From Eledone cirrhosa (Eukaryota): a DNA stretch of 64,000 nt. Position numbers and translations under genes: made by a program. The stretch's first letter is position 1; each line of letters opens with the position of its first letter. A model generated the notes under the pieces. That model did not search any database, was not told the DNA's origin, and was given only the letters and a program-made list of their open reading frames with translations. Location of the stretch: positions 394,196,001 through 394,260,000 of the forward strand of contig OZ024741.1 of NCBI GenBank assembly GCA_964016885.1. Direction: 5' to 3'. Shown piece after piece: positions 7,222 through 58,775 of the stretch.

Positions 7222-7341
7222 AATGAAAAGATTCAGGACCCCTACGGCTGAGCGCTGACCGCTTCGACAGCTAGATCTTGCTGTCGGCTCAGGCTGTCGA
7301 AACGGCCGGAGCTCAGCCGTTGGGGTCATGAATCTTTTCAT
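7222..7341. repeat. Fold-back hairpin of a dispersed family (also 44915-44965 and 56641-56732)
   Basis: atgaaaagattcaggacccctacggctgagc...gctcagccgttggggtcatgaatcttttcat. Confidence 0.8.
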
Positions 7342-7463
7342 ATTACCCCTTCTACTACCCCAAATACACAAATCTATACAGCGATGTCTGAGCGACACTT
7401 ATATATATGCACATTTATATATGTATATGTTTGTATATATATATATATATATATATATATATA

Positions 7464-8928
7464 TAGAAGTGGTTACACAACAGTTAGTTCACCATACCGA
7501 GAACAATTGTTTCACCTTAGCGGATCCTCAGCTCGGAATGGGCATGGTTATATGAACAGGAAGGACAACCGTACGAACGCGCATGCGCAGAAACCCGGTC
7601 ACTTCGCACAGGCAATACTAGACTGCGTGCGAGAGGTGTAAGGGAGATAACTGCGAGAGTCCGAAAAGTTTTTAAGTTGAAAATAAAATTACAAAGAATC
7701 AGTACGGAGCCTTGTAGTTATGCAATAGGTGTTTGGCGACGTGTGGACAACGTGTGAAAAATTCATTTCTCGTATTTAGGCAATCACTATTGCGTAATCT
7801 CTTTAGAATAGTTATTCGTTCGTCAATACATAAGCCACACGTCGGATTTCCCCTTGCGTATGGCTTGGACTTAGTGATGGCTTTCCATTGAATGGAGTAG
7901 TCTATACTCGAGTCCATGAGGGACCATACGTGGCTCGCGAGTTTCGTGGATGAATGTCTGTCCGGGTACGTGAAGGTAGACTGGTGGTTCAGGAAACCTT
8001 CCTTAAATCGGCCCTCCGCCATGCCCACATAGGATTTGACCTCCTGTGGTTCGTTTGGTCGGTTGGAAGTGATCACAGCTTCATAAATCACAGCTGGTGT
8101 TGCATTGCTGTTGAAGGGGGAAAGCTTCAGGCTTACGGCAAGAGCACCCTGGTGGGGTGTTGCTCCTAGGGCTGCTGGTGATGTGGGCCTTCATGTTCTT
8201 AGTGCAGGAGTATCCTAGTTTAACTTTGTGTCGGTTAAAGATGGAGCGGTATTTATGACCTATGGGAAAGTGTTTATCTAAGACGGCTAGAATTTTTTTT
8301 CCTACATTGGTTTTAACGTTGAGTGAGAAGGGAGGAGAGAACCAGATAGTTTGTCTATTGTTGCGCTTACTTTTCTTAATGGTGTTGTTGCTAGTAGGAG
8401 AGTAAGTGATAGGTTGTGAGAAACCGCTGTTAGCCAACGCCGTGTTATAGTAGGGTGCCGCCCTGTCAAAGATAGCCTTATTAGAGGAGAGGTTTGAGAT
8501 TCTAGTACTGATATTCTTAACGAAGTTTCTAAAAACAGTGGGAGGGTGGCATGAGTCCTTGTGAATATAATTGAGTTTCTCGTTTAGCTTATGGAAGGGT
8601 CTGTGGGTGGGTGTGCGAAGGTCTAAATTAATGTCTAAGAAATCTACGCTAGAGAGATTGGTGGCTACTGTTATCGTAAGTCCTAACTCATTGAAGGTAG
8701 AAGCTAAGTCTTTTTTAAACCGGTCGAGGTCGTGACCACTTTTATGACTCGATAAAGTCAGTCCATCGTCGCGGTATATTCCCGTGTGGAAGTCCCGTAA
8801 TATGTCTAAGATAAATAGGCCAACCAAGTCACATACGTCAGCACTGTCAAACGATCCCATGGAGACGCCGAATAGGTCTGAAGTTGTAGACGTCTTTGCC
8901 CAGGCTACTGCGCCGTTGAAGAGGAGGG
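7464..8928 (-). mobile_element. PLE (Naiad-like) RT + GIY-YIG, left arm of a palindrome
   Basis: ORFs 8081-8935 (MGSFDSADVCDLVGLFIL, GIYRDDGL, VDFLDI, CSCRKPEA.PLQQQC) and 7699-8091 (IYEA..SYVGMAEGRFK, CGLC, RCPH), separated by a frameshift. Confidence 0.9.
7497..7536 (-). ncRNA. Minimal type-I hammerhead ribozyme
   Basis: Minus strand: ccgag CTGAGGA tccgctaaggt GAAA caattg TT ctcgg. Stem I ccgag/ctcgg, palindromic stem III acaattgt, weak stem II. Confidence 0.75.
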
Positions 8929-10495
8929 AAATCATCGCTCACTGCCGGAAAACCCTCCTCTTCAACGACGGAGTAGCCTGGGCAAAGAAGTCTACAACTT
9001 CAGACCTGTTCGACGTCTCCATGGGATCGTTTAACAGTGCTGACGTATGTGACTTGGTTGGCCTATTTATCTTAGACATATTACGTGTTAGATTCCCGGA
9101 CTTCCACACGGGAATATACTGCGACGATGGACTGACTTTATCGAGCCATAAAAGTGGTCACAACCTCGACCGGTTCAAAAAAGACTTAGCTTCTACCTTC
9201 AATGAGTTAGGACTTACGATAACAGTAGCCACCAACCTCTCTAGCGTGGATTTCTTAGACATTAATTTAGAGCTTCGCACACCCACAGACCCTTCCATAA
9301 GCTAAACGAGAAACTCAATTATATTCACAAGGACTCGTGCCACCTTCCCACTGTTTTTAGAAACTTCGTTAAGAATATCAGTACTAGAATCTCAAACCTC
9401 TCCTCTAATAAGGCTATCTTTGACAGGGCGGCACCCTACTATAACACGGCGTTGGCTAACAGCGGCTTCTCACAACCTATCACTTACTCTCCTACTAGCA
9501 ACAACACCATTAAGAAAAGTAAGCGCAACAATAGACAAACTATCTGGTTCTCTCCTCCCTTCTCACTCAACGTTAAAACCAATGTAGGAAAAAAAAATTC
9601 TAGCCGTCTTAGATAGACACTTTCCCATAGGTCATAAATACCGCTCCATCTTTAACCGACATAAAGTTAAACTAGGATACTCCTGCACTAAGAACATGAA
9701 GGCCCACATCACCAGCAGCCCTAGGAGCAACACTCCACCAGGTTGCTCTTGCCGTAAGCCTGAAGCTTGCCCCCCTTCAACAGCAATGCAACACACCAGC
9801 TGTAATTTATGAAGCTGTGGTCACTTCCAACCGACCAAACGAACCACAGGAGGTCAAATCCTATGTTGTCATGGCGGAGGGCCGATTTAAGGAAGGTTTC
9901 CTGAACCATAAGTCTACCTTCAAGTACCCGGACAGACGTTCATCCACGAAACTCGCGAGCCACGTATGGTCCCTCAAGGACTCGAGTATAGACTACTCCA
10001 TTCAATGGAAAGCCATCACTAAGTCCAAGCCATACGCAAGGGGAAATCCGACGTGTTGCTTATGTATTGACAAACGAATAACTATTCTAAAGAGATTACG
10101 CAATAGTGATTGCCTAAACACGAGGAATGAATTTTTCACACGTTGTCCACACGTCGCCAAACACCTATTGCATAACTACAAGGCTCCGTACTGATTCTTT
10201 GTAATTTTATTTTCAACTTAAAAACTTTTCGGACTCTCGCAATTATCTCCCTTACACCTCTCGCATGCAGTCTAGTATTGCCTGTGTGAAGTGACCGGGT
10301 TTCTGCGCATGCCCGTTCGTACGGTTGTCCTTCCTGTTCCTATAACCATGCCCATTCCGAGCTGAGGATCCGCTAAAGTGAAACAATTGTTCTCGGTATG
10401 GTGAACTAACTGTTGTGTAACCACTTCTACCCAACTCGTCCCATGGACCGAGTGCTCTACCACTACGGATATTACCTTCCAGTGTTCCACCACTA
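8929..10495 (+). mobile_element. PLE (Naiad-like) RT + GIY-YIG, right arm of a palindrome
   Basis: HCRKTLLFNDG...GIYCDDGL, CSCRKPEACP, ORF 9817-10194 GIY-YIG C-terminal half. Reverse complement of 7464-8928 with different lesions. Confidence 0.9.
10357..10396 (+). ncRNA. Minimal type-I hammerhead ribozyme
   Basis: ccgag CTGAGGA tccgctaaagt GAAA caattg TT ctcgg, in the PLE 3' UTR. Confidence 0.72.
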
Positions 10496-10750
10496 TATAT
10501 ATATGTATATATATATATATATATATATATATATATATATATATATATATATATATATCAATAAAAAAATCTGAGGCCATATTCATTTGATTTGGGTTTA
10601 TTAAAATCCGTAATGTATATTTCGCTGAGGACTGTCATTTTTGACAGCATGTGCTTCTCAAACGGTAAACCTAAAAAACAATGAAATATCATTTAAAAAA
10701 ACCTTTCAATTTGGAAAAGGTTTACTTTTCTTGTTTTGATACAGGGGGCC

Positions 10751-10820
10751 GACTGGGCGTGTCATGTTATTTCCTCAACAAGAGGCCGATCGTTGAGGAA
10801 ATAACATAACACGCCCGGTC
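10751..10820. repeat. Short inverted repeat
   Basis: gactgggcgtgtcatgttatttcctcaac / gttgaggaaataacataacacgcccggtc. Confidence 0.85.
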
Positions 10821-11120
10821 ATGCCACCCAGCTCGCAAATCATGTATGGAGCCTTAAAAACAACGGCCCACTTTTCCCCATCAAATGGAGCATATTAGAA
10901 AGATTGGATTCTTTGAGACAGCTAGAAAATATTATTTTTGTTCTATTTTTGTTTTATCTTGACCGTGGTCTCGCAAGTGTTACCTCCTATGATCTTTCTT
11001 TCTAATTAAAAAAAATGAGTTGGGGTCCAGAACCCAACGAAACTTAAGTGCCTATTCATTTATGTCACTGTTATAATTATACATATATATATAATTATAT
11101 AATTATATAATTATATATAT

Positions 11121-57542: not shown

Positions 57543-57681
57543 AAATGTTTTATAAATATTTGACATGACCAAGGATAATATACCTTAACGGTTTAAGTTA
57601 TCCCTGGAAAGTCTTTCCATGGATAACTTGAACCGTTAAGGTATATTATCCTTGGTCATGTCAAATATTTATAAAACATTT
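57543..57681. repeat. Palindrome, 1-nt loop at 57612
   Basis: ...aagttatccctggaaag-t-ctttccatggataactt... Confidence 0.93.
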
Positions 57682-57688
57682 TGTATTG

Positions 57689-57740
57689 TATCTGATGATA
57701 GTGTACCAAAATTGTTGGTACCCTTGAAATATATATAATA
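57689..57740 (+). ncRNA. Minimal hammerhead ribozyme
   Basis: tat CTGATGA tagtgtaccaa aattg ttggtaccctt GAAA tatata TA ata, followed by aataaa. Confidence 0.7.
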
Positions 57741-57989
57741 GAATAAATATGGTTTTATAAATATAGTTTCCATTTATTTAATATCATTGACTACTTACTC
57801 CAGAAAACTGTCGAGTGCTCTAAATCAGTTATAAACATCTATATTTGTTGGATTTCCAACATATATATATCCAGGGCGTATAACGCGGATTTACTGTAGG
57901 TTCACCCAGGTGAGCACTCGATGTTTAGGTTCCCGTCAGTATTGAGGTGTAGAGCTAGACAGAGTCTAATATAATAATATTATATTATT

Positions 57990-58581
57990 GGTGGATTGGC
58001 AGTATCAGTAGAGGATCGGACATGCTTTCCAGCATAGTTACGTCCCTTTACAATCTGAGTTCAAATCCGGCCGAGGTTAATTTTGCCTTTCATCCTTACG
58101 GGGTCGATAAAATAAAGTACCAGTAATGTACTGGGTAATTGCTGGCCTTCTGCCAAATATAGAAACAATTATATTATCATTAATAATATAACTGCAGTGG
58201 ATTGGCAGTATCGGTAGAGGGTCGGATGCCATGCTTTACAATATAGAGTTATGCCCCTTTATGATCTGAGTTCAAATCCCACCGAGGTTAACTTTGCCTT
58301 TCATCCTTACGGGGTCGATAAAATAAAGTACCAGTAATGTACTGAGATAATTGCTGGCCTTGTGCCAAAAGTAGAAGCAATTATATTATTATTAATAATT
58401 GTTTCTATTTTTGGCACAAGGCCAACAATAACCCAGTGTATTACTGGTACTTTATTTTATCGACCCCGTAAGGATGAAAGGCAAAGTTAACCTCGGCGGG
58501 ATTTGAACACAGAATGGCAAGGGCCGTAACTCTACGCGTCAAAGCATGGCGGCCGACCCTCTACCGATACTGCCAATCCAC
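57990..58581. mobile_element. Cluster of three SINE A copies (57990-58172 plus, 58197-58383 plus, 58395-58581 minus)
   Basis: Each copy has A/B boxes and the core; the last two are tail-to-tail. Confidence 0.92.
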
Positions 58582-58726
58582 ATAATGACCACGGTCTTTA
58601 TGTGTGGTTATGTCCAGTACAGGTGGCAGCTTATTTTGTCCACTGGGTATGGCTATGCATTGTCAATGGGATTAGCTCTTGATTGGTTGAAAATAGTTAG
58701 CTCTTGATTGGTTGAAAATAGTCTAT

Positions 58727-58775
58727 TTAAGCTGTTGGGACATATAGCCAATGGTTATATGTCCTAGCAGCTTAA
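58727..58775. repeat. Hairpin, 1-nt loop
   Basis: ttaagctgttgggacatatagcca-a-tggttatatgtcctagcagcttaa. Confidence 0.85.

Follow-up and report, generated by a model that had tools for sequence, protein, structure and literature searches.

Most inverted repeats in a 64-kb window are Penelope-like insertions of families that typically join a tailed to an untailed arm, probably through twin priming at two fixed sites

Penelope-like elements (PLEs) equipped with an endonuclease (EN+), such as Pen2a_Av, form units in which an inverted, 5'-truncated copy lies at the 5' end and a tail may be present at one end (PMC3846280; PMC8557442), and the formation of their tandem and inverted structures is regarded as an open problem of PLE transposition (PMC8557442). 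A PLE protein nicks and extends both target strands, its two internal start sites bound the tail, and it is predicted to act as a dimer (PMC11167929). Here we analyze inverted repeats in a 64-kb window (the whole stretch under study, C2:394196001-394260000 of a 3.0-Gb animal assembly), which is rich in (TA)n and decayed retroelements. These repeats are real, occur genome-wide and represent a known kind of insertion, since PLE insertions with head-to-head 5'-truncated arms, a tail on a single end and (TA)n as target have already been published; what is added is a quantitative constraint on PLE integration. Most of the palindromes are head-to-head PLE insertions, probably generated by twin priming on one RNA at two fixed sites.

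The units resemble those of the Pen2a_Av type in their inverted 5'-truncated copy, one-end tail, microsatellite targets, hammerheads and junction palindromes. Unlike the published units, whose tails measure 30-40 nt, those found here have tails of 28 to ~95 nt, and most copies are short 3' ends devoid of an open reading frame (ORF), present in thousands per family. A sequence-only reading of the window had proposed a genome-wide hairpin-generating retrotransposition mode. This mode is not new: earlier work on PLEs describes the structure (PMC8557442), and a 2013 study put forward self-priming (PMC3846280). We provide counts for the strict coupling of a tailed to an untailed end and for its independence from arm length, and the text excerpts of these two papers hold no such counts.

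Family A, the main family, provides the reference case. Its left arm (7464..8928, minus strand; hammerhead 7497-7536) has no tail, a condition termed the 'n' end, and is 28 nt shorter at its 5' side, and its right arm (8925..10494, plus strand; hammerhead core 10362-10383) ends in a 65-nt tail (10430-10494) followed by (TA)n, the two arms meeting at 4-nt microhomology. The element had been listed as 7464-10429; it is present, but its true end lies at 10494 because the right arm has this tail. Broken ORF pieces of the right arm (8748-9305, 9266-9616 and 9700-10194) encode a reverse transcriptase (RT) followed by a C-terminal GIY-YIG domain, with the motifs YRDD and VIY...YVG read from the translation together with LSDKTNN (DKT), CSCRKPEAC (CxCX5C linker), CGLC (CxxC) and CPH (CxH), and with no CCHH. 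The nearest Atlas clusters of these pieces are eukaryotic RT-domain proteins (0.93-0.96), and searches of Pfam and PDB with the same pieces returned no match. Like the Hydra clade of PLEs with a C-terminal EN, family A has DKT where others have DKG, the CxCX5C linker, a GIY-YIG domain without CCHH, the CxxC and CxH motifs, the hammerhead and the (TA)n targets (PMC8557442). This assignment is made by motif, with a reference (a traced copy of 2.3 kb) that stops short of the ORF start, the region of the clade's N-terminal RWK motif. The type-I hammerhead at 7497-7536 has a short palindromic helix III near the 3' end, as in PMC4209133, and its cleavage is predicted.

A 33-base motif of family A has 5,010 exact matches in the assembly, and the first 100 on C1 (1.5 per Mb vs 1.67 genome-wide) formed our sample, the motif disfavoring copies that start beyond reference position 2182. 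These matches resolve into 86 insertion units, 48 head-to-head and 38 single, with one near-identical pair (L125/L126) that may count double; the claim of head-to-head joins at 5' truncation points is correct. Family A copies show 5' truncation, an inverted copy and an optional tail, and they terminate on the 3' side at either of two positions separated by 65 nt, the same two being used by single-arm copies (23 with the tail, 14 without). Short copies start mostly at reference 2143-2177, inside or just upstream of the hammerhead, and these starts do not coincide with the predicted hammerhead cut near 2193. Of 48 rows, 35 have (TA)n or (TC)n at both ends, in agreement with the (TA)n targets previously proposed. 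No direct repeats beyond simple sequence were found at the flanks in 58 rows, where (TA)n would mask a target-site duplication, and inspection of the 5' joins of the 38 single-arm copies by eye revealed no concealed micro-arms. At L199 and L200 (C2:313376000-313397000), family A copies recur in tandem every 5.4 kb within a larger duplicated unit.

When both ends of a family A pair fall at the fixed sites (n=43), 40 pairs combine a tailed with an untailed end, two are tailed on both arms and one on neither (p=1.5e-9 against independent ends, for which 50% is expected). The same combination was found in family D (in 32 rows, of which 2-3 are spurious, against 2 with no tail on either arm), in all six family J pairs with both ends classed, in 6/6 pairs of family C and in 6/6 two-arm copies of family O. 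Six such pairs of family B came from a biased query, and other family B counts were dropped, as TA in the reference polluted them. The tail of family D also makes up a satellite at L070.

Similarity between arms indicates that they mostly share a template. In 26 long pairs (overlap of at least 150 nt, obtained partly from similarity-biased searches) the arms share 119 rare variants versus 10.4 expected, and 10 pairs are mutual nearest neighbors; the seven of these whose shorter arm bears the tail share 20 versus 2.5, and 3/7 are mutual nearest neighbors. Divergence between the arms of the window pair (7464/8925) is 2.7%, and the median divergence from other copies is 4.9%. In family D the variable subfamily tags of the two arms are no more than 1 edit apart in 19 of 27 rows, among which one locus occurs twice, versus 3.5 when permuted. 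Of 28 junctions that passed anchoring, 11 contain inserted bases and 17 do not; among the latter, microhomology reaches 2 nt or more in 13 (17% expected) and 3 nt or more in eight (5.5% expected). Several zero-loop joins fall on natural palindromes of 4-6 nt, such as AGCT or GGATCC, where the annealing of two ends would be easier than the folding of a single strand.

Two discrete 3' ends, strict coupling, a tail on either arm, shared variants, microhomology and (TA)n flanks are thus the observed features of these insertions. Under twin priming, both strands of the (TA)n target would be nicked, and as (TA)n is identical on both strands, both nicks have the same target. From each nicked strand, cDNA synthesis would then start on the same RNA, at either of two fixed positions close to the RNA 3' end, the outer site giving the tailed arm and the inner site the untailed arm. 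Because two primers cannot share one site, the tail/no-tail coupling would follow, and a single template would leave shared variants in both arms. An outer cDNA halting at the inner site would produce a tail-only arm, an outer cDNA displacing the inner one would produce overlapping, palindromic arms, and the two cDNA 3' ends would be joined via 2-6 nt of microhomology, in many cases together with a small number of inserted or snap-back bases, true fold-back covering a minority of cases. The single RNA molecule, the strand displacement and the end-joining by the host are the components that we infer.

Several points weigh against this interpretation. In 16 of the 26 long pairs the arms are not each other's nearest neighbor, seven pairs are without any shared rare variant, and the arms of one family D pair (L068) belong to two different subfamily tags, so that, going by L068, insertion sometimes draws on two RNAs. 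Arms could also have been made more alike by gene conversion, and one RNA, two RNAs of one locus and two units of a tandem transcript are inseparable by sequence. In family L, most pairs have equal ends and the coupling is not clear. The tail arm is the longer one about twice as often as the shorter, for which a share of fold-back could account, and six cases in the window with a short arm that reaches neither fixed end fit snap-back equally well.

An unlikely alternative, and the strongest of those considered, is the priming of two RNA copies in a dimeric ribonucleoprotein, either two transcripts of a locus or two units of a tandem transcript, with subunits fixed to different sites. It draws on the predicted dimer (PMC11167929) and accounts for a tail on either arm, for long overlaps without strand displacement and for pairs with unlike arms such as L068. 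However, an extra rule is needed to force one tailed and one untailed end upon nearly every pair, and this alternative offers no reason for tail arms to halt at the inner site.

Fold-back, in which the nascent cDNA folds on itself and is copied into a palindrome, was the mechanism originally suggested for the window. Since such a cDNA copies itself, the shorter arm must sit within the longer one. In family A the longer arm bears the tail in 22 pairs and the shorter arm in 10, with 8 pairs of equal arm length, so containment holds in the minority of short arms and fails in 10 of the 32 informative pairs, 8 of which are clean two-piece cases; among long pairs the tail is on the shorter arm in 7/24 (family D was not used, its long/short calls being unreliable for divergent subfamilies). 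Moreover, some tail arms start at or past the inner site (A L156, 2232 vs 2231; the second unit of A L124, 2246; C L131, 214 vs 215; also C L169, D L239 and D L232), and these overlap the partner arm little or not at all, some being tail only. Tails on 5'-shorter arms and tail-only arms cannot be copies of the other arm. Inverted run-through into host DNA was found in 1 of 58 pair rows (L073; 3 further flagged rows are simple repeats), and fold-back gives no reason to stop exactly where single arms also end. It does fit the shared variants, is compatible with the junction microhomology, and suits short inverted pieces that reach no 3' end (L044, L050, L008 and L088; window 41275, 51572, 52291 and 57543), the tail/tail pairs L045 and L158, and L073, which copies host flank. 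Simple fold-back is excluded by these counts as the main PLE route and refuted as the sole one; the mechanism is valid for a minority of insertions, and we consider it very improbable that it predominates.

Slightly less probable again is that an antisense template served for self-priming (PMC3846280), or that the endonuclease trimmed one end of a free hairpin intermediate, with the tail made by 'EN-mediated resolution' (PMC8557442). Either would yield a shared template and a tail on either arm, but non-overlapping tail-only arms are no hairpins, single-arm copies end at the same inner site, and the start sites used in vitro coincide with the tail ends (PMC11167929). Least credible of all is a fold-back artefact of amplification or assembly: 52050 and 52291 are identical neighbors within TA arrays and read contigs fail to span the 7464 junction (they leave 8870-8920 uncovered, a neutral result), but arms differ by 2-12% and end at family-specific sites, centers follow element polarity as had been claimed (10 head-to-head vs 2 tail-to-tail close pairs, first 100 exact matches), and two runs of one sample, possibly the assembly's own source, each give a 117-nt contig across the 16825 center, with double depth on the arm.

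In L1 twin priming the internal position at which the second primer anneals is random, and most arms are without overlap. Twin priming as proposed here is alike in having two target primers on one RNA and an inverted join by microhomology, and unlike it in using a fixed second site and in yielding arms that for the most part overlap and so form a palindrome. Two family A copies (L058 and L019) are L1-type inversions, with an internal piece inverted, no or partial overlap, and an end short of the 3' end. The PAc Poseidon element of Anolis uses, in vitro, the same two tail-bounding internal starts, with both strands cut and extended at an AT-rich target (PMC11167929). The excerpts of that study report no difference in start site between strands, whereas the genomic pairs described here show coupling, and a term search of the same excerpts found no 'palindrome', 'head-to-head' or twin priming and no link to inverted insertions. 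Families M and O, as short non-coding hammerhead units with PLE-type ends, resemble the non-LTR retrozymes of animals (PMC7229834). Searches of the openly accessible literature found no paper stating the coupling or the twin-priming interpretation, which subscription papers (e.g. Arkhipova 2006; Evgen'ev and Arkhipova 2005) and supplements may hold.

A seed-and-extend scan for inverted repeats with short spacers detected 19 in the window and none in each of 10 shuffles of the unmasked bases only; a shuffle that included the TA arrays gave 7-11 matches, TA being scrambled into AT-rich noise, and was discarded. This set differs in part from the 19 repeats of the sequence-only reading, every one of which is nevertheless present within a few bases of where it had been placed (arms of 22 nt to ~1.47 kb, 84-100% identical outside microsatellite). 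Loops of 1-5 nt, described as frequent, occur in 7/19. The suggested PLE origin holds for 15 of the 19, which are PLE or hammerhead-bearing PLE-type repeats spread over many families, as had been noted (A-D, F-J and L-O), but 10751, 16825, 26933 and 58727 are unrelated to PLE. Genome-wide occurrence was likewise confirmed: 56 fixed-position stretches of 10 kb contain 79 short-spacer inverted repeats, or 9.0 per 64 kb, so the pattern extends across the genome with a roughly 2-fold enrichment in the window. A 57th stretch (L226, C7:30000001-30010000), left out of this density as an outlier, has 62 short inverted repeats in 10 kb and is probably a satellite of palindromic units. Among the 79, 22 match PLE-type families of the window, three match short interspersed elements (SINEs) and 54 are without assignment, 26 of the latter being flanked by (TA)n on both sides. 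The assembly comprises four chromosomes of 379-443 Mb and ~23 of 22-137 Mb.

Hammerheads on tails, another feature of the sequence-only reading, were recovered as 8 type-I motifs passing a structural scan of the window, against 0.02 per shuffle; further cores were found besides, and a separate strict scan overlooked minimal motifs. Their folding energies are mostly no better than those of shuffles, and the sole Rfam hammerhead match in the window is one below-threshold HH9 (51482-51558). Rfam matches to miRNA models, below threshold, were rejected as generic hairpins. Families A, C, I and L have an ORF that combines RT and GIY-YIG, in the last three upstream of the arm in other copies, and none was found in the examined copies of families B, D, F, G, H, J, M, N and O, which bear the PLE-type label by hammerhead core and/or tail pairing only.

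Seven window repeats (7222, 7464, 11121, 23289, 45066, 55520 and 56641) are insertions of two arms, of which one ends with the tail and the other without it. Family D contributes 7223..7398 (n arm 7223-7271, minus; tail-bearing arm from 7293, plus) and 56640..56828 (n arm 56640-56686, minus; tail-bearing arm 56689-56828, plus), and neither a canonical hammerhead core nor an ORF was found in it. The family O pair at 11119..11350 joins an n arm (11119-11192, minus) to an arm with a ~28-nt tail (11263-11350, plus), and longer copies contain a hammerhead core; a transposon with terminal inverted repeats of the miniature type was rejected for 11121, its ends being asymmetric, with the tail at one end in every two-arm copy. 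Family C, a PLE, forms 23289..23793 (tail-bearing arm 23289-23562, minus; n arm from 23594, plus), with hammerheads at 23497-23539 (minus) and 23616-23658 (plus). In family B (45063..45585) the n arm (45063-45272, minus) and the arm with a ~90-nt tail (45283-45585, plus) carry hammerheads at 45118-45170 (minus) and 45387-45439 (plus). Family M (55517..56409) begins with an inverted n arm (55517-55608), continues with a ~470-nt unit, non-coding and retrozyme-like, whose type-I hammerhead has its core at 55925, and ends in a second repeat copy and a tail interrupted by a SINE.

In six further repeats with PLE-type ends (20562, 41284, 51556, 52050, 52291 and 57543), the short inverted piece reaches no fixed end. 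Family N (20560..21913) is a longer non-coding element with an inserted SINE (21394-21581) and, at its end, a variant hammerhead-like motif followed by TA; an inverted arm of 414 nt (20560-20973) lies on its 5' part and stops before the 3' end. Several inverted and tandem copies of the family N 3' end lie at 21714-22478, each with a variant hammerhead-like core in which CAGAAGA or a similar sequence replaces CTGANGA, and more copies lie at 12693 and 36199. The hammerhead-bearing 3' end of family G (41275..41600, plus) has a 43-nt inverted piece at its 5' join and adjoins an older PLE ORF fragment (40407-41275, 75% identical to family L); another such fragment, at 35269-35805, resembles families C and I. 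The family H end (51301..51683, minus), which includes the HH9 match, has a 37-nt inverted piece and a re-copied piece at the 5' join, of the snap-back type. The PLE end of family I (52323-52900 within 52050..52900, plus; hammerhead core 52646-52673) is preceded by a 31-nt inverted piece that joins (TA)n at 52291, and 52050-52128 is its identical local duplicate; 52050 and 52291, listed separately, are both present but are two local copies of one event. Family J (57543..57870) pairs a 69-nt inverted arm with a tail-bearing arm (hammerhead core 57692-57729).

The remaining PLE-type repeats are a family L pair (11659..12555; listed as 11670), Neptune-like by motif, whose left arm stops 37 nt short and whose other copies have an ORF with RT, a CxxxxCxxC linker and GIY-YIG, and an ambiguous head-to-head pair of family F (33285..33451; listed as 33291) with 85% identical arms and a microsatellite in the loop, which may be two independent insertions; other copies of family F have a hammerhead core. 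Four repeats are unrelated to PLE. At 16825..17091, a 131-nt inverted duplication combines the 3' end of an old repeat, which we take to be SINE-like, with ~70 nt of unique host DNA and is likely a DNA-level fold-back. A 22-nt inverted duplication (26933..26977) ends a SINE-like fragment, the hairpin at 10751..10820 is intrinsic to a rare small repeat found at 3 further places, and 58727..58775 is a 24-nt inverted repeat in near-unique DNA.

The window contains other repeats as well. A second SINE-like family forms a head-to-head pair at 24403-24714 (75% identical, 17-nt loop), and SINE copies, presumably tRNA-like, stand tail-to-tail around (ATT)n at 58197-58581 and 57991-58187 with a third in tandem, an arrangement absent from the earlier list. 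A 373-nt direct repeat (37867-38239 / 39541-39913; 99% identity, 1.3 kb apart) possibly represents the long terminal repeats of a short element, a tandem array at 26325-26777 holds 11 copies of a 40-nt unit (98% alike), and a degenerate (TA)n array of 3.3 kb (41622-44907) includes a 200-N gap beside which lies a family-B-related hammerhead copy (43894-43948). Decayed reading frames at 27996-32867 and 46621-48887 presumably encode an endonuclease and RT of the long interspersed element type.

The coupling counts give a sharp prediction for the existing in vitro PLE system (PMC11167929). Family A by itself extrapolates to ~2,400 head-to-head units as a lower bound (5,010 matches x 48 pairs per first 100). 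We hold it an even question whether the inverted-repeat-plus-tail structure of PLEs is in general the footprint of programmed twin priming, with one RNA, two fixed starts, both strands and displacement, common to unrelated PLE families and their non-coding hitch-hikers, and filling a 3-Gb genome with tens of thousands of hairpins as a potential major source of double-stranded RNA (dsRNA) for editing or silencing. Octopus reportedly has an unusually high dsRNA potential and hyper-editing, and Penelope is heavily edited in a lizard (PMC5625713). If the host is an octopus, as a resemblance of the window to octopus genomes may suggest, the palindromes would bear on this dsRNA potential and hyper-editing.

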